Origin: Bacteroidales bacterium
GTDB lineage: Bacteria; Bacteroidota; Bacteroidia; Bacteroidales; JAUNSR01
Length of the DNA stretch: 64,000 nucleotides
Assembly (NCBI GenBank): GCA_030539115.1
Contig: JAUNSR010000003.1
Span: forward strand, 94,636-158,635
Direction of reading: 5' to 3'
In this document: piece after piece, positions 24,330-62,872 of the stretch
How the letters are laid out: the number at the start of each line of letters is the position of its first letter
Numbering within the stretch: the first letter of the stretch is position 1
The notes under the pieces: model-generated
The model's database searches: none
What the model saw: the letters and a program-made list of their open reading frames with translations, nothing else
What the model was told of the DNA's origin: nothing
Translations under genes and position numbers: made by a program

Positions 24330-24411
24330 CAGTCATAAGATGTTTATCAATCATTTTTTTAATTATATAATTGCCATAAATCACTAATAGTTTAAATGCC
24401 TGAATAAGTGT

Positions 24412-24776
24412 TTTTAAATGCAGCATTTGTATCTTAGTGTTAAATAATAGAATCTGCACAAATGAAACCGCCATAACTCACTCAAAGATGAGATACCCAA
24501 CAAAAGGTATATAAATGGCGCATTTGTACCTTAGAGGTAACGGTTAGAAAAATAAATATTATACAAATGAAACCGCCATAACTCACCTAAAGATGAGATA
24601 CCCAACAAAAGGTATATAAATGGCGCATTTGTACCTTAGAGATAACGGTTAGAAAAATAAATATTATACAAATGAAACCGCCATAACTCACCTAAAGATG
24701 AGATACCCAACAAAAGGTATATAAATGGCGCATTTGTACCTTAGAGGTAACGGTTAGAAAAATAAATATTATACAA
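24412..24776 (+). repeat. Tandem array: one degenerate partial unit plus three near-identical 105-bp units (24458, 24563, 24668)
   Basis: Direct reading gives an exact 105-bp period. Units differ at 1-3 positions. Each unit ends in tatacaaATGAAA, and the last of these is the kinase start codon at 24777. Confidence 0.95.
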
Positions 24777-26075
24777 ATGAAAATCCCTATTAGAATAATC
24801 ATATCTATTATAACAGCACTACTGTCTGCCACATTAATTACAATTTCTGCGGTACATGGTTTGTGGATGCTCTTTACTATTTTTTTGATCATTCTTATTT
24901 GGACACTTTATCTTATTATTAAAAGTTATGTTGTTCAACTTAAGAAATTAAATATCCTTTTAGACGCTGTTGAGAACAACGATTTCTCATTTCATTTTCC
25001 TGAAACAAAAATTGACAACTACGAAGCTCAAATAAACTACATATTCAATAGGATGAGAAAGATTCTTTCTCAAACCAAATCTGAAATTGTTGAAAAGGAG
25101 AAATACTATTCAATCATCCTTGACAAAGTCTCAACAGGGATTATTGTCATTGACAAAAATGGCTTTGTGAGTCAGATTAACGAAGCTGCTCTTTCGTTGA
25201 TTTCTCTTCCGGTGCTTACACATATCAATCAACTGAAAAAAATTGACAACTCATTTACACAAATTGTAAAGGAACTTACACCTGGAGTTACACGCAAAAT
25301 CACTTTAAATACATTATATGGCGACAAGACTCTGACTATTGAGTCTGCCTCTATTGTTATAAATGGCAATGAGCTGAAAATTCTTGCAATTAATGATATA
25401 GAATCCGAATTGGAGGAAAATGAAATTGATTCTTGGATTAAGCTTACAAGAGTTCTCACACATGAAATTATGAACGGCATATCACCCATCACATCACTTA
25501 GTGAGCGTCTTTTAAACAAAAGTGATATAAATGATCCTTCAAGACAAAGTCTTGAAGTTATAAACCATACAGGATCGCAGTTAATATCATTTATTAATTC
25601 ATACCGACAGGTTACAAAGATTCCAACTCCTGAATGTCAAGTATTTTCATTGAAAGATTTCCTTTCTATAGAAATAACAGCAATGAAATCGACCACTAAT
25701 CTCCCAATAAAGTTCATTTTAAATGTAGAGCCAATTGATTTAATGATTTATGCAGATAAAAATTTAATAGCCCGGATTGTTCTCAACCTATTAAAAAATG
25801 CCATTCAGTCTCTTTCCCACCAAAAAGAGCCTTACATAAAAATTGATGCTTATGAAGATAAAGAGGAAAAAGTTATTATTGATTTTTCAAACAATGGTGA
25901 AAAGATACCTGAGGAAATAGCCAAACAAATTTTCATTCCATTTTTTACCACAAAAGCAAATGGTTCAGGAATCGGGCTTAGCATATCGAGACAAATAATG
26001 AGACAACATAACGGGACATTAAAACTATCATATTCAAATCAAAATGAAACGCGTTTTTCAATGATTTTTAGGTAA
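24777..26075 (+). CDS. Sensor histidine kinase (two N-terminal TM segments, PAS-like, HisKA, HATPase_c)
   Basis: H-box LTHEIMNGISPI, N-box LLKNAIQS, G-boxes FTTKANGSGIGLS. Confidence 0.85.
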   Translation: MKIPIRIIISIITALLSATLITISAVHGLWMLFTIFLIILIWTLYLIIKSYVVQLKKLNILLDAVENNDFSFHFPETKIDNYEAQINYIFNRMRKILSQTKSEIVEKEKYYSIILDKVSTGIIVIDKNGFVSQINEAALSLISLPVLTHINQLKKIDNSFTQIVKELTPGVTRKITLNTLYGDKTLTIESASIVINGNELKILAINDIESELEENEIDSWIKLTRVLTHEIMNGISPITSLSERLLNKSDINDPSRQSLEVINHTGSQLISFINSYRQVTKIPTPECQVFSLKDFLSIEITAMKSTTNLPIKFILNVEPIDLMIYADKNLIARIVLNLLKNAIQSLSHQKEPYIKIDAYEDKEEKVIIDFSNNGEKIPEEIAKQIFIPFFTTKANGSGIGLSISRQIMRQHNGTLKLSYSNQNETRFSMIFR

Positions 26076-41905: not shown

Positions 41906-42611
41906 TTTTATTGAGTATTAGAAAATAGGTATTTTAGATAATAGAGTTAAAGTCTGAAAACAAAAGAAAATTACGTGTAGAGATTTGTAAAGGTAAATTG
42001 TTAAATATTTTAAATACAAATATCAATTATTACATGGTAAATTATAAGATAAGAAAAAGATATTATGATCAACAATAAACATTTTAAAATAGATTGTTGA
42101 AAAGTTATTAACAACATGCTGCCGAAATTTATTATACATTAAAAATATTATTTTAATATATTAATATATAGATATATAAATAATAAAATTTGTAATTGTA
42201 AATCGACATAGTTTATTAAGTAATATGATATTTCCAACAATTGTTTAACAAGAAATAAACAAGAAAAGAATCAGGTATTATATTATAAAATATCAAATCA
42301 TATATAAACAAGAAAAGTAATAGTCCTTTATTTCGTTAACATTTATACATCTTTATTGTTCATCAAATAACAAAATATATTAAAATGAAATATTTAATAA
42401 ATCAATGGCATTAATCTTTTGTAGATTTATAATTAGTTTAATCATACTAATAAGTGTGTATTGAATAAACAAGAAACCTAAAATAAGTACATTTGCAGCT
42501 AAATTAAAACGCTATAACTAACATTAAGATAAGATATTCAACAATGATATTTAATTGTCGAATTGCATCCGGTGATAAAAATCTGTTCACGTAAATTAAA
42601 TAGAAATATCA

Positions 42612-42752
42612 AAAAATGGCAATTGGTATCTTGACGGTTTAAAAAGAATATTTACGGATGTAACCGCCATAACTCACCTAAAGATGAGATACCAGACAAA
42701 AGGTGTATAAATGGCGCATTTATACCTTGATGTTAAAATAAAATATTTACAA
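42612..42752 (+). repeat. Copy B of the dispersed element (degenerate partial unit plus one full unit), ending at the ATG of the next gene
   Basis: aaccgccataactcacctaaagatgagataccagacaaaaggtgtataaatggcgcatttataccttgatgttaaaa aligns with the 24.5-kb units. Confidence 0.85.
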
Positions 42753-43355
42753 ATGAAAAAAAAGCATTATATATTATTACTGTCACTTTTTATTATCTCA
42801 ATAAAAAGTTACGGACAAATGGAGGTCAACAGAAGATATCCTAAGCCATATTATAATGCTGTAATAGAAAACGGAGATACTATTCCATATATTCAGATAA
42901 GAACCATCTATTGTTTTCCAAAAAAAGTTTTTAAATCAAGAAATGAAGAGAAACTCTATTGGCGTGATGTTATGGATGTAAAAAAGACGCTTCCACTTGC
43001 AAAGCTGATACATGGGATAATGATGGAAACTTATGAATATATAGAGACACTTCCCACACAGAAAGAAAAGGATAAACATCTGAAAAAGATGCAGAACGAA
43101 CTTTTTGAAGAGTATAAGCCTGTGCTTAAGAAGCTGAATTTCAGACAGGGAAAATTACTTGTAAAGCTTATAGACAGGGAATGTAAATCATCATCTTATG
43201 AGCTTATACAGGCATATTTGGGTAGTTTTGCCGCCGGTTTTTGGCAAGGTTTCGGAAAGGTTTTCGGTGTTAGTTTAAAACAGCATTGGGATCCACAAGG
43301 CAAGGACAAGGATATGGAAAAAATTTGTTTTATGGTTGAATACGGTATGATATAA
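42753..43355 (+). CDS. Secreted hypothetical protein (about 200 aa; resembles the Bacteroidetes DUF4294 family from memory)
   Basis: MKKKHYILLLSLFIISIKSYGQ is a signal peptide. The ATG at 42753 is preferred because 42711 lies inside the repeat element. Confidence 0.7.
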   Translation: MKKKHYILLLSLFIISIKSYGQMEVNRRYPKPYYNAVIENGDTIPYIQIRTIYCFPKKVFKSRNEEKLYWRDVMDVKKTLPLAKLIHGIMMETYEYIETLPTQKEKDKHLKKMQNELFEEYKPVLKKLNFRQGKLLVKLIDRECKSSSYELIQAYLGSFAAGFWQGFGKVFGVSLKQHWDPQGKDKDMEKICFMVEYGMI

Positions 43356-43382
43356 AAAATAAAATATATCATACCATATTTT

Positions 43383-43934
43383 TTATAGCTTTAGTTTCTT
43401 GAAGAAATCCCAGATAACAAGACCGGCAGTTACAGATACATTTAAAGAATGTTTTGTTCCAAACTGTGGTATTTCAATACAGCCGTCAGATATATCAACA
43501 ACAGATTGCTGAACGCCTTTTACCTCATTTCCCATAATGACGGCATATTTAAAATTCTTGTCCAACTGTATTTTATCAAGCTTTATACTGTTTTCAACCT
43601 GTTCAATAGAATAAACAATATATCCCATTTGTTTTAACTTATCAACAGCGTTGTGAGTATCTTCAAAATATTTCCAATCAACAACATCTTCAGCTCCAAG
43701 TGCAGTCTTATGAATTTCAGGGCTTGGAGGAGGAGAGCTTATACCGCAGAGGTATATCGATTCAACAAGAAAGGCATCTGAAGTTCTGAACATGGCTCCT
43801 ATATTGTTTAGACTTCTAACATTATCTAAAACAAGTATAAGAGGCATTTTATCGGTTGTTTTAAACTCATCCTTGCTGATTCTGTTCATATCGGCAATAG
43901 ATAATTTTTTATGTGTTAACTCCTTATTTTCCAT
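43383..43934 (-). CDS. TrmH/SpoU-family RNA 2'-O-methyltransferase
   Basis: LDNVRSLNNIGAMFRTSDAF, IMGNEVKGV and SLNVSVTAGLVIW, which are SPOUT motifs 1-3. Confidence 0.85.
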   Translation of the reverse strand: MENKELTHKKLSIADMNRISKDEFKTTDKMPLILVLDNVRSLNNIGAMFRTSDAFLVESIYLCGISSPPPSPEIHKTALGAEDVVDWKYFEDTHNAVDKLKQMGYIVYSIEQVENSIKLDKIQLDKNFKYAVIMGNEVKGVQQSVVDISDGCIEIPQFGTKHSLNVSVTAGLVIWDFFKKLKL

Positions 43935-44457
43935 AATGCAAATATAAAGCTAACAATTTAATAAGACAATTGATTTTTTTATTCTTAAACCAAACATTGA
44001 GTTTTATCAACATTATAGACAATAATTATTGATAACTATTGGAAAAGGTATTGAAAACCCATTAAAAACCAAGTGATAAATAATTTATTAAAAACAATAA
44101 CTTTTCTTTGAAATAAGAAATATACAGTTATAAGTGATTGGTTTTAAATATCAAAATTATTTATTCACAACTTATAATTGATTATATAAACCATATTTAA
44201 GAGAGTTATCAATAATCAATACGAGAGAAAGTTATTAACTTTGCAAATAATCAACATAAAAAGTATAATAGATAGTAACTAAGTGATTGATAGCATATAA
44301 TAATGTTGATATATTAATGAAAATATGTAGATAACGTTTTATTTTATATTAATAACTTTATATGCAACAAAAAATAAAAAAAGTTATACCTGTTATCAAC
44401 ACCATATTATTATTACCATAAGAAATTTTTAATTTTAAAATAAAAAGAATATATATA

Positions 44458-45447
44458 ATGATAAATATAGACTTATCAAAAGGTTTTGTTGATATCTCGG
44501 TTTCGAAGAATGTAAATCTGAAGGAAGAGATAGTTAAATTAAAAAAAGAAAAGAATGCAGTTATCCTTGCTCATTACTACACCGAGGGTGAGATACAAGA
44601 TATAGCTGATTTTGTGGGTGACTCATTGGCTCTTGCTCAATGGGCAAAAAAGACTTCTGCTGATATAATTGTTATGTGCGGCGTACATTTTATGGGAGAG
44701 ACAGCTAAGATACTTTGCCCGGACAGGAAAGTTTTGGTTCCTGATATGAATGCAGGCTGTTCTTTGGCTGATAGTTGTCCTGCTGATAAATTTGGTGACT
44801 TTGTAGCTCAGCATCCAGGATATACTGTTATTTCTTATGTTAATACAACTGCTGCAGTTAAGTATTATACTGATATTGTTGTTACTTCTTCTAATGCGCG
44901 TCAAATAGTAGAATCTCTTGACAAGGATGAAAAGATTATTTTTGGACCTGATCGTAATCTGGGAAATTATATAAATTCTATAACAGGGAGAGATATGCTT
45001 CTTTGGGATGGTGCATGTGATGTGCATGAGAAATTTTCTTTGGAAAAAATTCTTGAATTAAAAAAACAATACTCTTCAGCTAAAGTTCTTGCACATCCTG
45101 AATGTAAAAAAGTTATTCTTACTGTGGCTGACCATATAGGTTCTACAGCCTCTCTTTTAAACTTTGCTGTAAATAGTGATTCAGATACATTTATTGTAGC
45201 AACAGAATCCGGAATATTACATGAAATGCAGAAAAAATGTCCTAATAAAACATTTATTCCTGCTCCTCCAATGGATTCTACCTGTGCTTGCAATGAGTGT
45301 GCCTTTATGAGACTAAACACTCTTGAAAAACTTTACAATACTTTGAAGTATGAACTTCCGGAAATAACTGTTGATTCAAAAATCAGCGAAAGGGCAAAAC
45401 TTCCTATCGATAGAATGCTCGATATTTCGGCAAAACTTGGTTTATAA
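44458..45447 (+). CDS. nadA: Quinolinate synthase
   Basis: AVILAHYYTEGEIQDIADFVGDSL, VMCGVHFMGETAKIL, and conserved Cys residues for the 4Fe-4S cluster. Confidence 0.95.
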   Translation: MINIDLSKGFVDISVSKNVNLKEEIVKLKKEKNAVILAHYYTEGEIQDIADFVGDSLALAQWAKKTSADIIVMCGVHFMGETAKILCPDRKVLVPDMNAGCSLADSCPADKFGDFVAQHPGYTVISYVNTTAAVKYYTDIVVTSSNARQIVESLDKDEKIIFGPDRNLGNYINSITGRDMLLWDGACDVHEKFSLEKILELKKQYSSAKVLAHPECKKVILTVADHIGSTASLLNFAVNSDSDTFIVATESGILHEMQKKCPNKTFIPAPPMDSTCACNECAFMRLNTLEKLYNTLKYELPEITVDSKISERAKLPIDRMLDISAKLGL

Positions 45448-45455
45448 TTATAGCA

Positions 45456-45472
45456 ATATATATATATATATA
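45456..45472. repeat. (AT)n microsatellite, about 8.5 units
   Basis: atatatatatatatata read directly, just after the nadA stop. Confidence 0.9.
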
Positions 45473-45486
45473 ACAAATTATTAATA

Positions 45487-45535
45487 ATACCCCCCTAAAG
45501 AATTTTTAATTATTTCTTAGGGGGGTATTTGTTTA
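45487..45535 (+). terminator. Rho-independent terminator of nadA
   Basis: ATACCCCCCTAA / TTAGGGGGGTAT forms a 12-bp stem, followed by TTGTTTAT. Confidence 0.75.
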
Positions 45536-45629
45536 TAAATTGTTATTTTAAATATTATTTTTATATATAATATATTGATTATATGTATAATATGTTGTTA
45601 TCAACAATTGTTTATGAACAGTTGATAAA

Positions 45630-46589
45630 TCAATTTTTAAGATAAGGTTTTCCTTTTTTCCAACCCACCTCTTGATTGGTTATAAACCATGTTTTTCCAT
45701 TATCGTTATTTCCTTGATAAAACAAATAGGTTTTCCCATTTTTGTCTTTAAAAATTTGAGGATGGCCGGATTCAGAACTGTTCCAAGATCCTTTTTCTCC
45801 ATTTTTTAAAAAAGGAGTATCAAAAACTCTTTTCCAATGTATTCCATCTTTACTTTGTGCCACACCAATTTGTTGGGGAGCATTGTTATAATTTCCGGCA
45901 TAAAACATATAAAGGGTGTTTCCTTTTTGAATAACAGAGGCTGCCTCTATGCATTTTCCCTCCCAATCAAACTCCGGTTCAAGAATTGCACTATCACCAA
46001 CTTGTTTCCAATCATTACGATTAAAGTTTGAATTTTTAGGAGCAACAGCAACTCCTTGTTTTTGAATTATGAAGTCTTTGTCTCTTGTTGCAAAATATAG
46101 AAAATAATTGTTTTTGAATTTTATTACCTCGGCATCAATAGCTCTTCCACATGTCCAATCTCCGGAAGGATTAAAGATTGGATTTGTTTCATTTCTCTTA
46201 AAATTGATTCCATCGACAGATGTAGCATGGCAGATGGCATCTGTTTTTCCATTTCCGTAAGTTTGATAGAAAATATTTATTGTATCATTTTCAACAAGAA
46301 GTCCGGGAGCACAAAGCCCTTTTTTTTCATATTCTTTTTCCGGAAGAATTTCTCCAACCTTGTTCCAGTTGATTAGGTCATTGCTCTTAGCAATTCCAAT
46401 AGCCCACCCTGTTTCATCAATAGGAGGTATGGAATAATAAATAAAATAACACCCCTTAAAATTGATGACATAAGGGTCTTTAGAAAATGGTCTTCCTATT
46501 CTTGTGGAATCTCCGTACATCATTACACTTTGTGCGCTTATGAATGAGAAGAAACCTAAAAAGATGGATAATAAAAAAATGTTTTTCAT
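45630..46589 (-). CDS. Secreted five-bladed beta-propeller glycoside hydrolase (GH43/GH130-like; family not resolved)
   Basis: Signal peptide, and repeated blade pattern (..YFIYYS.., ..INIFYQTY.., ..YFLYFATRD.., ..LYMFYAGN.., ..TYLFYQGN..). Confidence 0.6.
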   Translation of the reverse strand: MKNIFLLSIFLGFFSFISAQSVMMYGDSTRIGRPFSKDPYVINFKGCYFIYYSIPPIDETGWAIGIAKSNDLINWNKVGEILPEKEYEKKGLCAPGLLVENDTINIFYQTYGNGKTDAICHATSVDGINFKRNETNPIFNPSGDWTCGRAIDAEVIKFKNNYFLYFATRDKDFIIQKQGVAVAPKNSNFNRNDWKQVGDSAILEPEFDWEGKCIEAASVIQKGNTLYMFYAGNYNNAPQQIGVAQSKDGIHWKRVFDTPFLKNGEKGSWNSSESGHPQIFKDKNGKTYLFYQGNNDNGKTWFITNQEVGWKKGKPYLKN

Positions 46590-46735
46590 TTGTATATAAT
46601 TTAATTTTTAACATCAAGGTACAAATGCGCCATTAATATTCTTTGTTGGGTATATCATTATTGTGAGTTATGGCGATTTCATTTATGTATATTTTTATAT
46701 TTAACATCAAGGTATAAATGCGCTGCGTTAATATT
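46590..46735 (-). repeat. Copy C of the dispersed element (one full unit plus a distal partial box) directly upstream of the GH gene start
   Basis: The reverse complement reads ataaATGAAAtcgccataactcacaataatgatatacccaacaaagaatattaatggcgcatttgtaccttgatgttaaaaattaaattatatacaaATG. Confidence 0.85.
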
Positions 46736-46863
46736 ATAAAGATATAAAAAACATTTACTAATCTATTTTTAACTCTTTTGTGATTTGATAAAATATTAAG
46801 AGTTTTTTAATAATTACTTTTGCAATCATAACTTTTTTAGTGCTTTACAATTATAAATTTTAG

Positions 46864-48267
46864 ATGAATAAGGATATATTATCTTCAGGTCCTCTTGTAA
46901 ATAAACCAATAGGTAAATTATTATTTCAATATGCTCTACCTTCAATAATAGCAATGTCTGCAAGTTCCATATACAATATAGCAGATTCAATTTTTATAGG
47001 ACATGGAGTTGGAGCAATGGCAATAGCCGGATTGGCAATATCATTTCCTTTAATGAATATTTCAGCTGCATTTGGTGCTTTGTTGGGAATAGGGGCGTCA
47101 GCTCTTACATCAGTTAGATTAGGTGAAAGAAATCAAAAACAAGCAATGCTGATTTTAGGTAATATGATAAAACTTGATGTTATAATAGGTTTGCTTGTTA
47201 CAATAATTGGTCTGCTATTTTTAAAACCTATCTTAATATTTTTTGGAGCAAGCGAAAATACTCTGCCTTATGCCTACGAATATATGAGCATTATACTTTT
47301 AGGTAATGTAATAACTCATTCTTTTATGGGTCTAAATGATATGCTTCGTTCCTCTGGTCATCCTAAAAAGGCAATGAGTGCAATGCTTTTAGCTGTTGTT
47401 GTAAATTGTATTCTTGATGCTCTCTTTATTTTCGTATTTAAATGGGGTATAATAGGAGCTGCAATTGCAACTGTCTGTGCACAAGCTATTGCTTTGGGCT
47501 TTGAATTGAATCATTTTTTTAATAAGTCCAATTACCTTCATTTTGATTCAAATTATTTCAAGTTTGATAAAAATATAATAAAAGAGATTATAGCAATTGG
47601 AATGTCACCTTTTTGCATGAATGTCTGTTCCTGTATGATCATCATTCTTATAAATACAGGGTTAATGAGGTATGGTGGCGATATATATATTGGAGCTTAT
47701 GGCATAATAAACAGAATAGGATTTCTTATTCAAATGAGTGTAGCAGGATTTAATCAAGGAATGCAGCCAATAGCAGGTTTTAATCTCGGTGCAAAAAAAT
47801 ATGAAAGAGTTACAAAGGTCTTAAAATATACTATTTTTTGTGGTACTGTTGTTACAACCCTCGGTTTTATATTGGGTGTGTTCTTCCCGAAGCATATTGC
47901 TTTAATGTTTACTCATGATAAGGAACTTATAGATATTACCGCCAAAGGAATGAGAATTGTTGTTAGTATGTTTCCTTTGATCGGTTTCCAAATGGTAACA
48001 ACAAGTTTTTTTCAGGCTGTAAGGCAAGCAAAAAAAGCTGTGTTTCTTTCAACTACAAGACAAATGTTGATACTTATTCCCCTTCTTGTTTTTCTTCCGA
48101 AGTTTATGGGTACAGATGGAGTTTGGATAAGCATGCCTATTGCCGATTTTTTAGCTTCATTATTGGCAGCAATACTTCTTTATAAATTATTTAAGAATTT
48201 TGGAGAAAAAAATAAAAGTCAGGAGTCTGTGAATTTTAATACTAATAAAGAATTTAATGTGTCTTAA
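46864..48267 (+). CDS. MATE-family efflux transporter
   Basis: 12-TM profile, and N-terminal LLFQYALPSIIAMSASSIYNIADSIFIGHGVG, typical of MatE. Confidence 0.9.
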   Translation: MNKDILSSGPLVNKPIGKLLFQYALPSIIAMSASSIYNIADSIFIGHGVGAMAIAGLAISFPLMNISAAFGALLGIGASALTSVRLGERNQKQAMLILGNMIKLDVIIGLLVTIIGLLFLKPILIFFGASENTLPYAYEYMSIILLGNVITHSFMGLNDMLRSSGHPKKAMSAMLLAVVVNCILDALFIFVFKWGIIGAAIATVCAQAIALGFELNHFFNKSNYLHFDSNYFKFDKNIIKEIIAIGMSPFCMNVCSCMIIILINTGLMRYGGDIYIGAYGIINRIGFLIQMSVAGFNQGMQPIAGFNLGAKKYERVTKVLKYTIFCGTVVTTLGFILGVFFPKHIALMFTHDKELIDITAKGMRIVVSMFPLIGFQMVTTSFFQAVRQAKKAVFLSTTRQMLILIPLLVFLPKFMGTDGVWISMPIADFLASLLAAILLYKLFKNFGEKNKSQESVNFNTNKEFNVS

Positions 48268-48277
48268 AAAGAAAAAA

Positions 48278-48313
48278 GCCAAATATCAAATGAATAGATA
48301 TTTGGCTTTTTTT
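48278..48313 (+). terminator. Rho-independent terminator of the MATE gene
   Basis: GCCAAATATC / GATATTTGGC stem with a 9-nt loop, followed by TTTTTTT. Confidence 0.8.
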
Positions 48314-48317
48314 ATTG

Positions 48318-48388
48318 TTGTCTTACAAGGATTCGAACCTTGACAAACAGAACCAGAATCTGTTGTGCTACCATTACACCATAAGACA
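48318..48388 (-). tRNA. tRNA-Gln (anticodon CTG)
   Basis: Manual fold of TGTCTTATGGTGTAATGGTAGCACAACAGATTCTGGTTCTGTTTGTCAAGGTTCGAATCCTTGTAAGACAA. It has a U1-A72 acceptor stem, anticodon loop TTCTGGT and T-loop GGTTCGAATCC. CCA is not encoded. Confidence 0.85.
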
Positions 48389-48680
48389 AAATGATGTGAT
48401 TTGCTCTTCACACTGCAAATATACTATCCATTTTTTATTTTACAATACTTAGAAAGCAAAAAAATTAAATAACAAGTTACGATATTATTCATCAGAGTAA
48501 TAATATTGCATTTACATACAATAAAAATATTAATAGGTCATTATATATCATTCATTAATCATTATATCATACAGTATGTATGAAAAAAAATAACAAATAT
48601 AATATATTATAAAAAGCACATATTAATTTTGTAATATTAAGAATAAATACATATAATTATAAAAATTATCATAAATGATG

Positions 48681-48688
48681 TATATTTG
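48681..48688 (+). promoter_or_regulatory. Candidate -7 box TATATTTG upstream of the SusC-like gene
   Basis: Matches TAnnTTTG, 40 nt before the ATG at 48728. No clear -33 TTTG. Confidence 0.3.
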
Positions 48689-48727
48689 TATACTCTTATA
48701 TAACTGAATTTTTAAATCTATTTACTT

Positions 48728-51700
48728 ATGAAATTTCGAAAAGAAATCTTTTTTTCAATTTTGGCTTTTCTAAATTTTAATTTTTATGTTTTTGGAGATA
48801 ATTTACCTTCAAATTCAGAAAATATTAACAGTGTAGAAAAACAAAAGGCTACTGTTTCTGAGAAGGAATATGTAAGCAATGAATTAAATCCAGAAGTTAA
48901 TTCAAATTCTATTAGCATTAGTCAGCAAAATTCTATTAATGTTAAAGGACAAGTTGTTGATGCATCCAATGGAGACCCACTTATTGGAGTAAGCATTATG
49001 TTGGAAAGCAATCCAACTCAAGGAACCACCACTGATATAGATGGTAATTTTTCTATTACAGTGCCAAGTAATGAAAGCCTTGTATTTACCTATGTAGGTT
49101 ATAAGAAAAATGTTGTAAAAGTTAATGGAAAGACACAGATTTCAATAAAAATGGAGCCTGACAACGAAACTCTTGATGAGGTAGTTGTAGTAGGTTACGG
49201 CACGCAAAAGAAAGTAAGTGTTATTGGTTCCATTTCAACAGTAAGTGCTAAGCAGTTAAAAACACCCGTTGCAAAAATTTCTTCAAATTTAGCCGGTCAG
49301 CTTTCAGGTATTATTGCTTATCAAAGAAGTGGTGAGCCCGGCACAGGTTCTACTTTTTGGATTAGAGGTGTATCATCCTTTAGCGGAACAACCACTCCAC
49401 TTGTTTTAGTAGATGGTATTGAGCGTAGTATAGACCTTGTGGATCCTGAAGATATTAAAGATTTTTCAGTTTTAAAAGATGCATCGGCAACAGCTATATA
49501 TGGTGTAAGAGGTGCAAATGGAGTTGTATTAATTACAACAAATTCAGGACAGGAGGGAAAAGCTAAAATATCTGCTCGTTTTGAAACCGGTGTAGTAGCC
49601 CCTACAAAGGTTCCTGAAACAGCAAGTGCTCTTCAATTTGCTGAAATGTATAATGAAGCATATGGATATAATTATTTTTCCGAAGAAGCAATGGAGGCTT
49701 ATAAAACAGGAAGCAACCCTGATTTATATCCTAATGTCGATTGGATGGATAACATTTTCAAAAAAAATTCTTTCAATAGAAGAGGTAATGTTTCCGTAAG
49801 CGGAGGTGCTAAAATTGTTAAGTATTACATTTCCGGAGGTTATTACGGTGAAGATGGTTTGTTTAAAGTAGATGGAACAAAAAATTATAACACAGAATCA
49901 AATTACAATAAATATAATTTCCGATCAAACATTGATTTGCAGTTGGAAAAGAACACGGTATTAAATTTGAATTTGGCAACAGTTTTTGAACAGATTAACC
50001 GTCCCGGCACAGATGCAGGAGATATTTTTGATTATGCTCTTGTAACTCCAGCCAATGCTTTTCCAATAAGATATTCAACAGGAGAATATGCAGGTCCTGG
50101 TTCAGGTCAAGGTTCAAACCCTTATGCTTTGGTAACAGAAACAGGTTATAGACAATATTTTTATAATAATGCTCAAACATTAATTGGTTTGAATCATGAT
50201 TTTGGATGGTTGTTAAAAGGTTTGAAAGGAACAATTAAATATTCATTTGATGCTTATAACAGCCATTATCAAGGAAGAACAAGAACACCGGAACAGTATG
50301 GTCAGCCTGTTTATGATGAAGAGGGTAATCTTCATTTAACTCAGTTGGTACAAGGTTCTCAGACTCTTGGTTTTGGTTATTCAAGTAGTGGTAATCGTAG
50401 AAACTATCTTGAAGCATCTTTAAATTATGCACATAAATTTGGAGCTCATAGTTTAACAGGATTATTATTATTCCAACAATCACAAACCAACTATGTAGGT
50501 TCAAGTGCTACCACTTCTGATGCTGCTCTTCCATACAGAAATCAAGGTGTTGCAGGAAGAATAACTTATGATTATGATTTGAGATATTTTATAGAATTTA
50601 ATGCCGGTTATAACGGTTCAGAGAACTTTGCACCGGGAAATAGATTTGGATTTTTCCCTGCTGTAGCAGCCGGATGGTTGATATCAAATGAAAGTTTTTG
50701 GGAACCTCTTTCTGAGACTGTAGATATGTTAAAGATAAAAGGGTCTTGGGGTAAAGTCGGAAATGATAAGATTGGCGGTGACAGACGATTTATTTATCTT
50801 GGAACTATTAATAATTCAGCAGGTTCTTATTCTTTCGGTACAAATGCCGGAGGTCAGTCAGGTATAAGAATCGGTGATGAGGGAAATCCAAATGTAGGTT
50901 GGGAACAAGCAGATAAATTGGATTTAGGCTTTGATGTTTCTCTTTTTAATAGTTTGAAAATTCAATTTGATTACTTTAGAGAAAAACGTACAGGTATATT
51001 TCTACAACGTAAAGCAATTCCTGTATTTGCCGGATTGTCTACAAATCCTTATGTAAATATTGGAGAAATGCACAATAAGGGTATTGATGGATCTGTTGAT
51101 TTCAACAGAAAATTTGGAGAAGTATTAGTAACAGCAAAAGGTACATTTACTTTTGCAAGAAATGTTATTGTGAATATGGACCAACCGGATTGGGCTGAAT
51201 TGTATATGAATAGAACAGGTCAGGCACAATGGCAGTCTTATGGATATGTTTCTGATGGTCTTTTCCAAAGTCAGGAAGATATTGATTCTCACGCTGACCA
51301 ATCATTGTTCTCTCCAAAACCAGGAGATATAAAATATGTAGATTTAAATAACGATGGTGTAATTGATGAGCGTGATACTAAGCCTATTGGTTGGAGAAAC
51401 GTTCCTGAAATTGTTTTTGGTTTTGGTGCATCAGCATCTTGGAAAGGTTTTGATTTATCTTTATTTTTCCAAGGAAACGATCATGTACAGTTCTCAAAGA
51501 ATACATCTCTTGTAAGAGGCTTTTCTCCATCAACAGGTAATATCAATCAAGCTAATGTTCTTTCCGATTTGTATGGCAATTATTGGACTGAAGATAATCC
51601 GGATGCAAAATATCCAAGATTAACATCAGGAACAAATACCAACAACTCTCAATCTTCTGATTATTGGCTTGTAGATGGTAAATATATACGTTTGAAAAAT

Positions 51701-51892
51701 GCTGAATTGGGCTATGCTTTACCAAGAAAATTAGTTAATAAAATGAAATTGTCAGGATTGAGATTTTACCTGCAAGGACAAAATCTATTCTGTATAAGTC
51801 CATTTGATTTATGGGATCCTGATTTACAAACAGGTGCATCTTCTTACCCAACAACTAAAGTTGTCAGTATTGGTGTAAGTTTAGGAATTTAA
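48728..51892 (+). CDS. SusC/RagA-family TonB-dependent outer membrane transporter
   Basis: Carboxypeptidase-regulatory-like domain (VKGQVVDASNGDPLIGVSI), TonB box/plug (DEVVVVGYGTQKK), and a 1054-aa barrel. It is followed by a SusD-like gene. Confidence 0.95.
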   Translation: MKFRKEIFFSILAFLNFNFYVFGDNLPSNSENINSVEKQKATVSEKEYVSNELNPEVNSNSISISQQNSINVKGQVVDASNGDPLIGVSIMLESNPTQGTTTDIDGNFSITVPSNESLVFTYVGYKKNVVKVNGKTQISIKMEPDNETLDEVVVVGYGTQKKVSVIGSISTVSAKQLKTPVAKISSNLAGQLSGIIAYQRSGEPGTGSTFWIRGVSSFSGTTTPLVLVDGIERSIDLVDPEDIKDFSVLKDASATAIYGVRGANGVVLITTNSGQEGKAKISARFETGVVAPTKVPETASALQFAEMYNEAYGYNYFSEEAMEAYKTGSNPDLYPNVDWMDNIFKKNSFNRRGNVSVSGGAKIVKYYISGGYYGEDGLFKVDGTKNYNTESNYNKYNFRSNIDLQLEKNTVLNLNLATVFEQINRPGTDAGDIFDYALVTPANAFPIRYSTGEYAGPGSGQGSNPYALVTETGYRQYFYNNAQTLIGLNHDFGWLLKGLKGTIKYSFDAYNSHYQGRTRTPEQYGQPVYDEEGNLHLTQLVQGSQTLGFGYSSSGNRRNYLEASLNYAHKFGAHSLTGLLLFQQSQTNYVGSSATTSDAALPYRNQGVAGRITYDYDLRYFIEFNAGYNGSENFAPGNRFGFFPAVAAGWLISNESFWEPLSETVDMLKIKGSWGKVGNDKIGGDRRFIYLGTINNSAGSYSFGTNAGGQSGIRIGDEGNPNVGWEQADKLDLGFDVSLFNSLKIQFDYFREKRTGIFLQRKAIPVFAGLSTNPYVNIGEMHNKGIDGSVDFNRKFGEVLVTAKGTFTFARNVIVNMDQPDWAELYMNRTGQAQWQSYGYVSDGLFQSQEDIDSHADQSLFSPKPGDIKYVDLNNDGVIDERDTKPIGWRNVPEIVFGFGASASWKGFDLSLFFQGNDHVQFSKNTSLVRGFSPSTGNINQANVLSDLYGNYWTEDNPDAKYPRLTSGTNTNNSQSSDYWLVDGKYIRLKNAELGYALPRKLVNKMKLSGLRFYLQGQNLFCISPFDLWDPDLQTGASSYPTTKVVSIGVSLGI

Positions 51893-51917
51893 TCTTAACA
51901 AAAAATTTAATTGCAAT

Positions 51918-53864
51918 ATGAAAAATAAATATATAATATTGATGCTTTCTGTTATGCTCTGCAGTTGTGAGTCGTATCTTGACCGTCAGCCTGATGATAT
52001 GCTTACAGAAGAGTCTATTTGGGAAAAGCAAACAACTACATTAAGATATCTTTACAATGTTTATTCTTGGACTCCAAATGATACTGATCCTTCCGGTCAG
52101 GTGATGGCAGACCATTTATCTACAGATGAATTAACTTGCGCTTATCCAAACCGTTTTTATGAACTTGTAATACACAATACATTTGCACCTTTAACAGGAG
52201 GTGATTCTTATAGAACATACCCTTATACATATATGTATCGTGGAATAAGAGAGGCTACAATCTTTATAAAAAATGTTGATAGATGTCCTGAACTTTCTGA
52301 TGATGAGAAGGTGCTTTATAAGTCAGAAGCTCAATTTCTACGTGCATTCTATTATTATAGATTAATGAAACTTTTTGGACCTGTAATTTTTTCGGGAGAT
52401 GAATTGGTTGATTTTTCTTCTGCTAATATAAAAAATGCTGATAGGGCACCTTGGCAAACAATTGTTGACTGGGTTTGTGAGCAACTTGATGAAGCTGCAT
52501 CTAAATTACCTGATGCAAATGCTTGGGGTGAGGCTTGGCAGGGAAGAGCAACTCGTGGAGCAGCAATGGCTGTTAAAGCAAGATTGTTGCTTTATAGTGC
52601 AAGACCTCTATTTAATGGTCAAAATGGAACTCATATATATGACAATGTAAAAAATAAAGATGGAGAATTGTTGTTTAATACAACCTATGATGAGTCAAGA
52701 TGGAGAACTGCTGCGCAGGCTGCAAAAGCAATTATCGATTTAAACGAATATGCTCTTGTTGATGATTCTGAAAAAGAAAATGATATGGAGAGAGCAATGG
52801 AAAATCTTCAGAATCTTTATGTTCAGCGTTTGGCAAATACTGAGTTGATTTATACTATACAAAAAGGTGCTGATGCATGGAAAGTCGTTGCTATTCCAAC
52901 AGCAATTATTAGTGGTGCAACTTCTTATGGCGGTGTTGCTCCTACTCAGAAAATTGTTGATGCTTTTGCAAGCGCTAATGGATATTATCCTATTAAAACT
53001 GATTATTTTGATACCAAAGAATATGCTCAGGGAGCAAATGTTCCTGAATCTGCTATAGATTCAAGGTCAAATTACACTGAAGAAGGTCACAAATCTATGA
53101 TACATCCGTTGTTTGCTTTTGTTAATCCTAAATATGCTCAGGCAAGAGAGACAATGAATATGTATGTAGGCAGAGAGCCTCGTTTCTATAGAAATATTAT
53201 TTGGAGTAATACTCAGTATGTAGAAAATATCACTACAGGTGATGTCCATCTTTATGCAGGCGGTAAGTCAGGACCGGAAACTTCTCACAACTATAGTCCA
53301 ACAGGTTATCTTCCATTAAAATGGATTGACTCCCGTCAGTCTCATAAAGATGGATGGGGTGCAATTTCTTGGCCGGTATTCAGACTAGGAGGTGTTTATT
53401 TGGATTATATAGAAGCATTAAATGAGTATGATCCTAATAATGCTGATATTCTTCTTTATTGGAATAAATTACGTCACAGGGCAGGAGTACCAGATATTGA
53501 TGAACTGTATCCTGAAATTAAAGGCAACAAAGAATTGCAAAGAAAATATATTCAACGTGAACGTATGGTTGAGATGTGTTTTGAACAACAACGTTACTAT
53601 GACACCCGTACTTGGATGATTGCTTCTGTTTCTGAAAACGGATACGTAATAGGTTGCAATATTAAACAAAAAACAGATGCAATGAACAGTGCATTTTGGA
53701 CCAGGGTGCCTATTGGAGACCCTACTTATGGATATGGTGAAGGTACAGTGCTCGGCAAACATGTGTTTGAGGATAAGAATTATCTTTATCCATTTAATCA
53801 AGAGGAAATAGACCGTGTTCCGGCTCTTAATCAATCAAATAATTACGGTTGGACCACAAAATAG
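51918..53864 (+). CDS. SusD/RagB-family nutrient-binding lipoprotein
   Basis: Lipobox LCSC, and TPR-like SusD blocks (EAQFLRAFYYYRLMKLFGPV, RFYRNI). It directly follows SusC. Confidence 0.9.
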   Translation: MKNKYIILMLSVMLCSCESYLDRQPDDMLTEESIWEKQTTTLRYLYNVYSWTPNDTDPSGQVMADHLSTDELTCAYPNRFYELVIHNTFAPLTGGDSYRTYPYTYMYRGIREATIFIKNVDRCPELSDDEKVLYKSEAQFLRAFYYYRLMKLFGPVIFSGDELVDFSSANIKNADRAPWQTIVDWVCEQLDEAASKLPDANAWGEAWQGRATRGAAMAVKARLLLYSARPLFNGQNGTHIYDNVKNKDGELLFNTTYDESRWRTAAQAAKAIIDLNEYALVDDSEKENDMERAMENLQNLYVQRLANTELIYTIQKGADAWKVVAIPTAIISGATSYGGVAPTQKIVDAFASANGYYPIKTDYFDTKEYAQGANVPESAIDSRSNYTEEGHKSMIHPLFAFVNPKYAQARETMNMYVGREPRFYRNIIWSNTQYVENITTGDVHLYAGGKSGPETSHNYSPTGYLPLKWIDSRQSHKDGWGAISWPVFRLGGVYLDYIEALNEYDPNNADILLYWNKLRHRAGVPDIDELYPEIKGNKELQRKYIQRERMVEMCFEQQRYYDTRTWMIASVSENGYVIGCNIKQKTDAMNSAFWTRVPIGDPTYGYGEGTVLGKHVFEDKNYLYPFNQEEIDRVPALNQSNNYGWTTK

Positions 53865-53884
53865 ATTAAACTATATTATACATT

Positions 53885-55342
53885 ATGAATATAATAAAAT
53901 TTAAAAATATAGCATTATTTGCAGCAACTCTTGCAATTATGCCATCTTGTGAGGAAAATCACATAAATGATAATCTTTATGAGCCAGCTGTTTATCTTGT
54001 GGATAATATGACAAATGGTATTTGCTCTACTGATAAGATTTATGATATACAAGATCAATATGAATATCCGGTTTATGCTTATTGTTCCGGATTCAATGAA
54101 GGTGATGCAGATGTAAGTATATCAGCAAACCCCGGTATATTGGATTATTATAATACTACTACAGAATCTCAATATAAGTTGCTTCCTGATGATTGCTATA
54201 AGATAACAACTGCTTCATCTAAGATAAGTAACAGAAAAGCAAAAATGATTGTTAATTTTGATATTAAGAAGATTATTGTTTTATCTAATGTTGAGGATTA
54301 CTCAGACTTGAGTGAGTATGTTTTACCTATTGCATTAAAGTCTGATGCGGGAACTCCTGTTTCTACAAAAGATACTCTTCTTGGTTTTACAATTGTAAGT
54401 CCAATAATTGAAAAGGCTTCTGCAATTATTTCTTCAACAAGTATTGTAGATAATCAATTTAAGGTAACTCTAAAATTGCCTTTTGAGAATGCATGGAAAG
54501 CTGAATATGACATTGATTTTGGTTCTGTTGAGATGAATGAAGCTGCTACAGGATTGGGAAATTCTCTCCCTGCTTTCTATAATCTTTCAGAATTACCTCA
54601 GGGAACAACTATAGAAAACGAGGATGTTAGAACTATGGAACCTGGAACAAGTGAAGTAACTTATACCGTCACTCTCCCAACTCAAACTACTCCTGCTGTT
54701 CAAATTTATAAAGTCGTTCTTAACAATTTTAAGCTTGATGGAGTTGAAATACCTGTTGACGGTGATAAAATACAATATTTTATGACATCAAATATGACAT
54801 ACAGCCCTACTGTTGATAGAGAAAATACTGCCAATGATAATGCTTATTTTGGAAAAGGATTAAGCAATTATGCAGCATGGAAGAGCTTTACACTTGTCGA
54901 TAGAAGCAAATTAAATTTTGTTTCAGAGTCTGCCAACAATCCTGTAAGCAGTGCTTTCGATGGTCAAACAAGTACTTTCTGGGATAATAACTGGGGCGGT
55001 GGTTATGGACCAAGTACCATTCCTTTTAATGCTGTTCTTGATTTAGGATATGTTACTGATGTTGACGCTATTGAAGTATGGAGAAGACCGGGTACGTATG
55101 TTACAGATACAAAAGCTTTTGAAGTTTATGCTGCTGATCAGGTTGATGCTAATGGTGAGACTATTCAATATGGTAAATTATCTTATCTTGGATTAGTAGA
55201 TTTTGGCAACAGCAACAATGTTAACAGACTTATGTATCAAATGATAAATAATGCCAAGACTCAATATTTAATATTGAGATTTGTTCAGGCTAATAGAACA
55301 AATTGTATTTCGGTTGCTGAATTTAATTTATGGCATAGATAA
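53885..55342 (+). CDS. Surface lipoprotein with a DUF1735-like N-terminal region and a C-terminal F5/8 type C (discoidin) domain
   Basis: Lipobox MPSC. The C-terminal NPVSSAFDGQTSTFWDNNWGG...VAEFNLW is typical of discoidin carbohydrate-binding modules. It is the third gene of the PUL. Confidence 0.7.
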   Translation: MNIIKFKNIALFAATLAIMPSCEENHINDNLYEPAVYLVDNMTNGICSTDKIYDIQDQYEYPVYAYCSGFNEGDADVSISANPGILDYYNTTTESQYKLLPDDCYKITTASSKISNRKAKMIVNFDIKKIIVLSNVEDYSDLSEYVLPIALKSDAGTPVSTKDTLLGFTIVSPIIEKASAIISSTSIVDNQFKVTLKLPFENAWKAEYDIDFGSVEMNEAATGLGNSLPAFYNLSELPQGTTIENEDVRTMEPGTSEVTYTVTLPTQTTPAVQIYKVVLNNFKLDGVEIPVDGDKIQYFMTSNMTYSPTVDRENTANDNAYFGKGLSNYAAWKSFTLVDRSKLNFVSESANNPVSSAFDGQTSTFWDNNWGGGYGPSTIPFNAVLDLGYVTDVDAIEVWRRPGTYVTDTKAFEVYAADQVDANGETIQYGKLSYLGLVDFGNSNNVNRLMYQMINNAKTQYLILRFVQANRTNCISVAEFNLWHR

Positions 55343-55392
55343 AATTTATTATATATATTATATATTCTAAATTTTAATTTAGACATTTATTT

Positions 55393-55435
55393 AAACGCAT
55401 CTCGATAGTTTTTAACTTTGGAGATGCGTTTTTTA
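55393..55435 (+). terminator. Rho-independent terminator between the discoidin-domain gene and the GH20 gene
   Basis: AAACGCATCTC / GAGATGCGTTT forms an 11-bp stem, followed by TTTTAT. Confidence 0.7.
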
Positions 55436-55530
55436 TATAATCATTTATTTTTGCATTTTAAATAAAAAGTTCCTTAAATTCTGATTTTGTCCTTTTTACG
55501 TAGCTTTCCATATTAATAATTATTTATATC

Positions 55531-57135: not shown

Positions 57136-57371
57136 TTGATAATTTCAGATACAGTAAAATCTATAAATAATTTTTTATCATAGGATTATTATTAATTTTA
57201 AAAAGAGCAATTGAAAATAATGAATATTTTTCAACTGCTCTTTTTATTGTCATATCTAATTGTACAATCTTTAATAAGATGATTTGGAACCAAATTTTAT
57301 TATAATTGACAAACAAAAAACAAATATGAAGCCTTGAGTTTTGGCGCTCGTTTCGCCATATTGTTTGAAAC

Positions 57372-57397
57372 AAAAAAACCTGCATCACTGCAGGTTT
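57372..57397 (-). terminator. Rho-independent terminator after the tRNA-Asn pair
   Basis: The minus strand reads AAACCTGCA gtga TGCAGGTTT followed by a TTTTTTTG run. Confidence 0.7.
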
Positions 57398-57402
57398 TAA
57401 AG

Positions 57403-57476
57403 CTCTTCAGGTTGGGCTTGAACCAACGACCCCCTGATTAACAGTCAGGTGCTCTAACCAACTGAGCTACTGAAGA
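57403..57476 (-). tRNA. tRNA-Asn (anticodon GTT), copy 1
   Basis: Manual fold of TCTTCAGTAGCTCAGTTGGTTAGAGCACCTGACTGTTAATCAGGGGGTCGTTGGTTCAAGCCCAACCTGAAGAG, with anticodon loop CTGTTAA. Confidence 0.92.
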
Positions 57477-57498
57477 ATGTTTACTTGAAAAATTTGGG

Positions 57499-57572
57499 CT
57501 CTTCAGGTTGGGCTTGAACCAACGACCCCCTGATTAACAGTCAGGTGCTCTAACCAACTGAGCTACTGAAGA
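57499..57572 (-). tRNA. tRNA-Asn (anticodon GTT), copy 2, identical to copy 1
   Basis: The same 74-nt sequence recurs 96 bp further along. Confidence 0.92.
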
Positions 57573-57627
57573 GTGTTTTTAGCAATTCTTAAGATGATTT
57601 CGGATGTCCCTCTCTCAAATTGCATTG

Positions 57628-62737: not shown

Positions 62738-62776
62738 AAGAGTAGGGCATATTTATATAAGGTAAATAAAAAAATT

Positions 62777-62872
62777 CATTTGTATATACTTTATTTTTAA
62801 CATCAAGGTACAAAAGCGCCATTTATAAACATTTTGTTTGGTATCTCATTTTTAAGTGAGTTATGCGGTTTT
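62777..62872 (-). repeat. Copy D of the dispersed element (single unit) in the convergent gap between the MBL-fold gene and the RND gene
   Basis: The reverse complement reads aaccgcataactcacttaaaaatgagataccaaacaaaatgtttataaatggcgcttttgtaccttgatgttaaaaataaagtatatacaaATG. Confidence 0.75.

Follow-up and report, generated by a model that had tools for sequence, protein, structure and literature searches.

A family of short non-coding repeats, referred to here as the element, occurs in a 64,000-nt stretch of a Bacteroidales genome (contig JAUNSR010000003.1, positions 94,636 to 158,635; this whole stretch is hereafter the window, and coordinates count from its first letter). The repeat is probably, at a rough probability of 0.7, a small, non-coding and non-autonomous insertion element that lacks terminal inverted repeats (TIRs) and lands on the ATGAA of gene starts. 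The strongest indications are orthologous gene starts in related species that lack the element, and the pentanucleotide ATGAA that borders it at every locus analysed. The initial annotation of this DNA had described a dispersed family at four loci, and this family is real, with its extents corrected to 24368-24776, 42503-42752, 46590-46729 and 62780-62874. The architecture proposed there, namely a box, a spacer with an ATG, the CCGCCATAACTCAC module, a second box and a terminal tacaaATG, is likewise correct for the first three loci.

Alignment of the copies defines a non-coding unit of 91-105 nt with four parts. The 5' end, ATGAAA(T/C)CGCCATAACTCACC, is followed by a short hairpin and a second hairpin, ATACC...GGTAT, then by TATAAATGGCGCATTT(G/A)TACCTTGATGTTAAAA, and finally by an AU-rich stretch ending in TATA(C/T)AA, immediately after which ATGAA stands. 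Both motifs used to trace the family are strongly over-represented in the window: GCGCATTTGTACCTT (up to 3 mismatches) was matched 11 times against 1.46 expected and CCGCCATAACTCAC 13 times against 1.87 expected, counts that none of 100 shuffles reached. An nhmmer profile of the unit returned exactly the four loci and no further match even at E<=10. The four loci comprise about ten unit-derived segments in total. Two blocks of the unit, CGCCATAACTCAC and TATAAATGGCGCATTTRTACCTTGATGTTAAAA, evolve slowly. The box is the least variable part: a comparison of 57 positions across the four window loci gives 2 differences, against an overall divergence of about 23%. The units contain only mini open reading frames (ORFs) of one to seven codons, typically four. 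Their lengths cover all three residues modulo 3, and a frame constraint on unit length was therefore rejected. TIRs are absent, since the first 30 nt aligned with the reverse complement of the last 30 at a local score of only 5, a value equalled or exceeded by 70% of shuffles (shuffle mean 5.1).

Empty orthologous sites and the ATGAA target

Evidence for insertion comes from orthologous genes without the element, found for the DUF4294 gene in five relatives, for a histidine-kinase gene in two and for nrdG in one. The five relatives at the DUF4294 site (NadA 85-88% identical) share with the window the gene order 680-aa gene, DUF4294, SpoU, NadA. At the empty site of L078 the start region is cacgTACATTTGcagtcactATGAAAAAAGTG, with the start reading TACATTTGcagtcactATGAAAAAAG and the promoter sequence GTACATTTGCAG 12 nt upstream of the ATG. 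The same promoter box is present in the window, where the start region reads taagTACATTTGcagctaaATTAAA, followed by the array and then by ATGAAAAAAAAG; at the left junction, TACATTTGcagctaaATTAAA stands directly before the array start ACGCTATAAC, at the position equivalent to TACATTTGcagtcactATGAAAAAAG in L078. About 250 nt of element sequence now lie between the relic of the old DUF4294 start and the present one. In addition, the distance from the response-regulator stop to the kinase ATG is 0-3 nt in the two relatives (junctions cTGATGaga in L081 and TAAcaaATGagc in L082) against 447 nt in the window. Outside the window, the nrdD-nrdG junction in four assemblies of the species represented by CGS10Y1-bin31 (bin31) reads ...aaaataacaaATGAA, then ATCGCC...TATACAA, then ATGAATTATCAC, whereas in the relative L096 (NrdG 83% identical) it reads ...caaaagcaaATGAACTATCAC, free of the element and with a single ATGAA. 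The right-hand ATGAAT encodes the conserved MNYH start of NrdG and is thus native, while the left-hand copy consists of ATGAA and the element's A. The element was therefore inserted and is not a pathway-specific operator. The initial annotation had also judged it not to be a pathway-specific regulator site, and the empty sites bear this out; its description of the downstream genes as functionally unrelated agrees with the kinase, DUF4294 and GH43-like genes in the window and with the ORFs named from their N-termini elsewhere.

The flanks of the element point to the target. Herein, 19 loci were compared, four in the window and 15 elsewhere, from five genomes. The right flank is ATGAA in 19/19 loci, for which the probability is about 5e-6 if the two bases after ATG are free; the null used for this flank was the window, where ATGAA is the commonest gene start (21/45 genes). 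Wherever the left flank is native, ATGAA stands on both sides of the element, and thus a short flanking duplication is present. At the sixth position, the right side varies between A, G and T, as expected of native sequence, and the left side constantly has the A of the element. The simplest description would be an element A(T/C)CGCC...TATAYAA with the 5-bp sequence ATGAA on both sides. An alternative fits equally well and cannot be distinguished from it: the element would carry one ATGAA and recombine within the identical core. Such apparent duplications have been argued to be an element-borne core in the literature on the insertion sequence (IS) families IS110/IS1111 (PMC11187229).

The element has the same orientation relative to ATGAA in all 19 loci, including the three that lie off gene starts. 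The right-hand ATGAA opens a long ORF in the sense orientation in 16 of them (3/4 in the window). The tabulation of orientation and start-codon distance suggested in the initial annotation thus yields a fixed sense orientation and a start codon at the end in 16/19 loci. The stronger statement that every copy points at a start codon fails at 62780-62874, where only an 8-codon ORF follows between convergent genes, at L009, where a ruvB-like ORF begins about 33 nt further on, and at L020. The ATG at the end of the element is more plausibly part of an ATGAA that belongs to the gene and was copied during insertion than something the element brought along. Counts of ATGAA in the window are 21 at gene starts, 37 in non-coding DNA and 255 within genes; with purging of intragenic insertions alone, 36% of insertions would be expected at starts, compared to the 16/19 found (p=2e-5). 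This enrichment may come from a longer, A-rich target or from further selection. Furthermore, an upstream ORF could be called at 16 loci, and 12 of these loci start 1-90 nt past the end of an ORF that runs in the same direction; this short distance suggests that many insertions sit at operon junctions.

Copies in the window and in other genomes

The four window loci are 75-84% identical to each other (mean 77%) and are composed of the following features.

24368-24776 (+): locus 1 as a whole, one decayed unit and three 105-nt tandem units, ending at the ATG at 24777
24368..24461 (+): first unit of the locus-1 array on its 5' side, the oldest one and decayed (nhmmer match 24368-24468, E=7.7e-11)
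24462..24776 (+): three tandem 105-nt units (Tandem Repeats Finder: period 105, 3.1 copies, 98% matches)
24777..26075 (+): histidine-kinase gene (Pfam HATPase_c/HisKA), whose ATGAA is the right-hand target copy
42488..42495 (+): native -7 promoter box TACATTTG, of Bacteroidetes type, which belongs to the DUF4294 gene and at present lies about 255 nt before its start codon
42503-42752 (+): locus 2 as a whole, decayed older units and one intact unit, ending at the ATG at 42753
42503..42508 (+): remnant of the earlier start, in which ATGAAA has decayed to ATTAAA; left-hand target copy (by comparison with L078)
42509..42657 (+): older decayed unit or units, ACGCTATAACTAAC..., with the degenerate box AATGGCAATTGGTATCTTGACGG (repeat family D2; alignment row L2_up)
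42658..42752 (+): intact gene-proximal unit, from ATGTAACCGCCATAACTCACC to GCGCATTTATACCTTGATGTTAAAATAAAATATTTACAA (nhmmer match 42650-42758, E=3.7e-30)
42753..43355 (+): DUF4294 gene with a signal-peptide-like N-terminus (Pfam PF14127, E=9e-55), beginning with the right-hand ATGAA
46590-46729 (-): locus 3 as a whole, a partial copy and an intact unit, ending at the ATG at 46589
46683..46729 (-): upstream partial copy, box and leader only, GCGCATTTATACCTTGATGTTAAATATAAAAATATACATAA (nhmmer match 46729-46677, model positions 63-113; repeat family D4)
46590..46682 (-): intact unit of locus 3 (nhmmer match 46689-46584, E=5.9e-25)
45630..46589 (-): gene for a five-bladed-propeller glycoside hydrolase-like protein (Pfam GH43/GH32N matches), beginning with the right-hand ATGAA
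62780..62874 (-): locus 4, a solo copy away from a gene start (nhmmer match 62882-62774, E=9.8e-27)
62775..62779 (-): right-hand ATGAA of locus 4, intergenic, with no gene start and just an 8-codon ORF after it

At locus 1, the decayed unit begins 39 nt past the stop of a sigma-54-type response-regulator gene (22974-24329). The tandem units, with their ATGs at 24462, 24567 and 24672, start with ATGAAACCGCCATAA (mini-ORF MKPP-stop) and end in ...TATTATACAA. All three carry a private variant of the 3' flank of the box, TTAGAGGTAACGG..., and the array therefore grew by local duplication. In the older stretch of locus 2, nhmmer matched 42497-42582 (E=0.004) and 42614-42646 (E=7.1), the latter not significant alone. 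A mechanically called ORF, 42711-43355 (+), starts there at the in-frame ATG of AATGGCGC inside the element, 42 nt before the real DUF4294 start; as in this case, the element can mislead start-codon annotation. The intact unit of locus 3 comprises the mini-ORF ATGAAATCGCCATAA (46682-46668), the hairpin module, the box AATGGCGCATTTGTACCTT (46634-46616; motif-scan match 46616-46630) and an AU-rich leader ending in ...TATATACAA. Locus 4 lies between the 3' ends of the convergent genes 62899-63888 (-) and 61922-62737 (+), and shows decay in its left target, ATAAAA (62874-62869), and in a one-base deletion in CCGC-AT.

To find the family outside the window, one genome per species was scanned for exact matches to the 19-mer box. 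Nineteen loci were returned, four of which (L005, L007, L011 and L012) are chance matches with no similarity to the unit beyond the box. The remaining 15 carry the unit and come from four other Bacteroidales metagenome-assembled genomes (MAGs): 11 from bin31 (GCA_036655755.1), 2 from CGS10Y4-bin28, 1 from CGS10Y1-bin50 and 1 from WFFMC_MAG_166. Between these and the window loci the element can be aligned and the flanks cannot, and identity of the element across genomes is 75-87%. Unlinked loci of bin31 are on average 86% and up to 96% identical. Copy number is estimated at four loci per 64 kb in the window and at least 11 in the fragmentary bin31. All window copies carry ATGA where most copies in other genomes have TTGAG, and this genome-specific variant suggests that amplification seems to have continued separately in each lineage. 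Read from their N-termini, the products of the ORFs downstream of these copies include ProC-, ThiC-, NrdG-, GH3-, MlaD- and TolC-like proteins and an ABC-2 permease; NrdG is the only one of these products with database support. Box-only copies persist beside genes at L010, L002 and L004, and a deletion between the AAATG repeats of a unit could account for them; in L010 the box begins precisely at a stop/start overlap, TAATG, of the gene upstream. A relic-like copy at L006, 147-201 (-), retains an isolated piece of the hairpin module and a truncated box (…CTCACCTAAAGTTGAGATAACTAAC…AATGGCGCATCTG) and has lost the two ends of the unit.

Several other collections gave no match to the element. Rfam, searched with the whole window at the gathering score and with locus 1 at E<=10, matched only tRNAs and a SAM-II riboswitch, all outside the element; the Rfam comparison proposed in the initial annotation thus identifies no described RNA family. 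Scans of JGI metagenomes gave 0 matches and 2 chance matches, the 53 matches in viral contigs were all chance 15-mers without the remainder of the unit, and plasmids gave no blastn match. In the literature searched, no miniature element targeting start codons was described in Bacteroidetes. In addition, Logan short-read contigs of the window's strain (L001, corresponding to window 42665-46611, and L083) end exactly inside copies of the element. The repeat therefore fragments assemblies at gene starts and would be under-counted in MAGs.

Proposed mechanism and alternative explanations

Under the insertion reading, the element integrates in a single orientation at ATGAA, which then stands on both sides, giving the layout native upstream sequence, ATGAA, element A(T/C)CGCCATAAC...TATAYAA, ATGAA and the rest of the gene. 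The downstream reading frame remains untouched, and the gene gains an AU-rich leader of about 95 nt, which is probably included in the mRNA made from the promoter or operon of the host. The displaced original ATG opens a four-codon mini-ORF terminated by the element's conserved CCATAA. This mini-ORF, ATG-AAA-(T/C/G)CG-CCA-TAA or MK(S/P/A)P-stop, is found in 13/18 aligned units; two units have TAG for TAA, and in one the stop lies three codons later. Since the target is rebuilt at the gene-proximal end, repeated insertion and unequal crossing-over produce tandem arrays in which distal copies decay. Distal copies are decayed at window loci 1-3 and at L015, L018 and L019, where the gene-proximal copies are intact. 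Intragenic insertions would be purged, and this purging, or a longer A-rich target, may enrich copies at start codons. Mobilisation would occur in trans by an orientation-specific recombinase, the candidates for which include an IS110/IS1111-like DEDD enzyme, a tyrosine recombinase and a single-strand HUH transposase. Likely cis sites of such an enzyme are the slow-evolving blocks CGCCATAACTCAC and TATAAATGGCGCATTTRTACCTTGATGTTAAAA. Conservation of the box and CGCCATAACTCAC fits cis sites under a master-copy model, and an unrecognised promoter or protein-binding site would fit as well. Furthermore, pairing of CATTTRTA is possible with (Y)AAATG at the displaced start as well as at the present one, and may mask the old start in RNA; that the new start is thereby left free, a swap of starts, is inference only.

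Several points weigh against this reading. No transposase or integrase was found among all genes of the window, nor, in a PHROGs screen of 66 ORFs flanking the copies elsewhere, among the best 25 of 72 matched families. Presence/absence polymorphism within a species was not seen, all four assemblies of the bin31 species carrying the nrdG insertion. The copies outside the window were retrieved by an exact box match, which makes their box conservation a matter of construction, and therefore only the window copies count for that argument. The two conserved internal blocks could reflect a function at the level of the host, such as promoter activity or binding of protein or RNA. The enrichment at start codons could be entirely selective and not mechanistic. 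Finally, an asymmetric 5-bp flanking repeat with fixed orientation is atypical of DDE transposition, and the chemistry proposed above is a guess.

A mobile promoter cassette, which would be compatible with mobility, is an unlikely alternative. The box AATGGCGCATTTRTACCTT would then be an alternative-sigma promoter about 45-20 nt before the ATG, the hairpin module an activator site, and the element would rewire transcription of the gene behind it. This is favoured by the low variability of the box, by a geometry that would give a leader of about 20-25 nt, by the box-only copies kept beside genes and by the agreement of the family with the operational definition of putative mobile promoters (PMC3488235). 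Furthermore, TGGCGC resembles the sigma-54 -24 element, and locus 1 lies behind the gene of a sigma-54-dependent response regulator. However, the -12 GC is missing at GG-N10-GC spacing: where TTGC is expected, TACC stands in 17/18 units and ACCT in L020b, and a sigma-54 promoter (TGGCAC-N5-TTGC) was rejected because none of the 18 units has TTGC as its -12 tetranucleotide. A Bacteroidetes housekeeping promoter (TTTG at -33, TAnnTTTG at -7) was rejected as well. TAnnTTTG is the consensus of Bacteroides promoters and is present in 0/18 units, the closest in-unit matches being TACCTTGA and TAGATTAT; the view of the initial annotation that the box is not a canonical Bacteroidetes promoter is thereby confirmed. 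In addition, no promoter is needed at the 12 loci that closely follow a co-directional gene, the locus-2 array still has the native -7 box on its upstream side, and distal boxes in arrays decay freely. The missing TAnnTTTG, the intra-operon positions and the surviving native promoter argue for taking the element, most simply, as a transcribed leader insertion. Of the mobile promoter or 5'-leader cassette suggested in the initial annotation, the mobile leader is supported and the promoter is unproven, although a promoter for an unfamiliar sigma factor may be present.

The remaining alternatives explain less of the data. A cis-regulatory leader RNA, riboswitch- or attenuator-like and selected before a regulon, is very improbable and, as a primary explanation, already largely refuted by the empty orthologous sites; relatives have the orthologous genes without the element, and the genes that carry it have no common function. 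Its fold would be a three-way junction of P1 (CGCCAT/ATGGCG), P2 (CTCA/TGAG) and P3 (ATACC/GGTAT), followed by a start-sequestering helix CATTTRTA:TAYAAATG. In this fold 88.7% of cells pair, compared to 24-47% with slid partners, P1 is predicted in six of six single folds (z-scores down to -2.5), the R/Y pair at columns 77/115 comprises 8 GC and 4 AU, and the P2 hairpin is kept with other sequence, TCAC/GTGG in L003 and CTTAT/ATAAG in the older L018 unit. This replacement suggests that the hairpin as such may matter, in RNA or in single-stranded DNA. Yet covariation is 0.052 against 0.045 for shuffled alignments, a score reached by 75/500 shuffles, and RNAalifold retains only P1 and the pairing of the old AAATG with CATTT, at a consensus energy of just -5.8 kcal/mol. 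Single-fold z-scores range from +0.25 to -2.5, several folds being no better than shuffles, and by pair counts, RNAalifold and single folds the three-way junction is plausible but statistically unsupported. The variable loop sequences, tandem arrays and decayed copies would also be unexpected of a sensor, and Rfam offers no match. Ordinary recombination without a dedicated enzyme, in which duplication and ectopic gene conversion would act through short homology at ATGAAA starts, is improbable too. Local tandem duplication is clear in the three 98%-identical units of locus 1 with their private variant, and deletion between in-unit AAATG repeats could yield the box-only copies. Against this, 19 unlinked loci from five genomes have identical boundaries and share one 5-bp flanking repeat, a homology of 5-9 nt is too short for efficient homologous recombination, and the estimated copy number is high. 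There is next to no likelihood that the inverted pair 42658-42752 (+) and 46590-46682 (-) bounds an invertible segment, a shufflon swapping which convergent gene set follows a fixed upstream region. The two copies do form inverted repeats at a distance of 3.9 kb, and their arms reach 94% complementarity over 33 nt (I7, I9), but the enclosed genes (DUF4294, SpoU, NadA) have the same order and orientation as in element-free relatives, most copies elsewhere are solitary, and the search of the window genes revealed no recombinase gene nearby.

An integron attC-like reading (CATAAC...GTTAAAA) was dropped: P1 and the putative R''/R' pairing exclude each other, and the copies lie scattered and do not form cassette arrays.

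Beyond insertion as such, a bolder and clearly more tentative proposal, to which we give somewhat under even odds, is that the element belongs to an undescribed class of miniature elements specialised for colonising translation start sites. This proposal would join recognition of ATGAA in one orientation, probably with A-rich upstream context, the start rebuilt on the 3' side, neutralisation of the displaced start by the in-frame CCATAA stop and by pairing of the CATTTRTA anti-start with the old AAATG, and a leader free of Shine-Dalgarno sequence. Such elements could spread through Bacteroidales operons and gene starts with little damage, by a recombinase not yet linked to elements of this kind. 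If true, the element would be a natural mobile element with the start codon as its niche, swapping the 5' leaders of many unrelated genes, including intra-operon genes that were previously translationally coupled. Translation initiation in Bacteroidetes does without Shine-Dalgarno pairing and is poorly understood, and the copies would provide a ready comparative experiment on the leader requirements of Bacteroidales. Orientation-specific insertion anchored on a pentanucleotide would likewise point to a site-specific recombinase worth finding, RNA-guided enzymes of the IS110 type being of current engineering interest.

Neighbouring features and comparison with known systems

Other features of the window were recorded alongside the element. 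Upstream of locus 2, the region 41906-42487 (about 580 nt) has no ORF of at least 80 aa, and the five relatives have a minus-strand gene of 268-272 aa there, between the gene of about 680 aa and DUF4294; this may reflect gene loss or a pseudogene in the window's lineage. In L078 (5987-8550), a PfkB kinase gene lies within about 1.6 kb after NadA, with an S41 peptidase gene further on. The window has about 12 kb (45630-57600) between NadA and PfkB, a block that contains the GH43-like gene, MatE, tRNA-Gln, a SusC/SusD pair, a BT_3987-like gene, GH20 and two tRNA-Asn genes, and one copy of the element lies at its edge. An AT-rich imperfect tandem repeat (45535-45601, period 18-20, about 3.6 copies) occupies the convergent region between NadA and the GH43-like gene. 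The two tRNA-Asn(GTT) genes, 57402-57476 and 57495-57573 (-), form a 96-nt tandem duplication with 98% matches; tRNA-Gln(CTG) lies at 48317-48388 and tRNA-Leu(CAA) at 7357-7443. The SAM-II (long-loop) riboswitch aptamer RF01726 at 26746-26804 (+) scores 59.8 bits (gathering score 44), and the S-adenosylmethionine synthetase gene (26917-28209) begins about 110 nt downstream of it. Just past a GH16-like gene lie a 21-nt tandem repeat (3.7 copies, 30282-30358) and, 38 nt further downstream, a nearly perfect 52-nt palindrome, with arms 30397-30422/30423-30448, 92% complementary and without spacer. In addition, the window contains a Type I restriction-modification locus, 281-7156 (+), with HsdM, HsdS, an unannotated 241-aa ORF and HsdR, and a gene for an extracytoplasmic function (ECF)-type sigma factor (9084-9671) between two ORFs without Pfam matches (7908-9083 and 9685-10191).

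Among known systems, small non-coding multi-copy repeats such as Correia/CREE, BOX, ERIC and RUP are intergenic or lie in 5' untranslated regions, are co-transcribed and can form hairpins. BOX elements are modular with a variable number of modules, which the A/B modules and arrays of the present element resemble. Classical miniature inverted-repeat transposable elements are likewise small, non-coding and multi-copy with a direct target duplication, as found here; however, they have TIRs and usually symmetric targets such as TA, whereas the present element has no TIRs, an asymmetric 5-nt target and one orientation, on start codons. Palindrome-associated transposable elements (PATEs) derived from IS200/IS605 lack TIRs and have subterminal hairpins; their insertion, on the 3' side of a fixed sequence of 4-5 nt, is strand-specific and leaves no target duplication. 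The fixed left ATGAA and the left-end hairpin CTCACC..GTTGAG are compatible with a PATE, while the right-hand ATGAA and the weak right-end hairpin are atypical, and the right end of the element would have to terminate in ATGAA; no partner TnpA or TnpB came up in the searches for a transposase. Riboswitches and leader RNAs share the multi-copy occurrence in sense orientation just before start codons and a possible start-sequestering helix, but the element is not at orthologous genes, shows no significant covariation or Rfam match, and forms tandem arrays with decay.

The nearest mechanistic precedent is the IS110/IS1111 families, although family membership cannot be claimed without an enzyme. 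These families have no TIRs, a fixed orientation at a conserved target and apparent short flanking duplications of which one copy is owned by the element, and their mini-elements are mobile when transposase and seekRNA are supplied in trans (PMC11187229). The present element is also TIR-less, with a single orientation, a conserved target and an apparent short flanking repeat. It differs in being a non-coding unit of about 100 nt seen alone, for which neither transposase nor guide RNA was found, whereas the autonomous elements are 1.2-1.5 kb long and encode a DEDD transposase and a guide RNA. For IS900 of Mycobacterium avium subsp. paratuberculosis, a member of the IS110 family, the target motif is CATGNNNNNNTCTCCTT, CATGN6TCTCCTT (PMC8141618). 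By our own reading, its reverse complement, AAGGAGA-N6-CATG, would correspond to a Shine-Dalgarno sequence and a start codon, and would thus be a precedent for targeting translation starts. On this reading, the IS900 target combines Shine-Dalgarno sequence and start, while here the target is ATGAA itself, in a phylum without Shine-Dalgarno use.

In position, the closest likeness is to the putative mobile promoters (PMPs) of Matus-Garcia, Nijveen & van Passel (2012), which are 50-100 nt long, at least 80% identical and located directly before the start codons of non-homologous genes (PMC3488235). Such stretches recur both inside single genomes and between genera, and most of them match no known IS or Rfam family (PMC3488235). 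Their operational definition, at least 50 nt and at least 80% identity upstream of non-homologous coding sequences, describes the present 91-105-nt units as well, with identity up to 96% within bin31, although promoter function is unsupported for this element. PMPs are defined by position and similarity alone, whereas the present family also has boundaries, an ATGAA repeat, empty sites and a mostly intra-operon placement.

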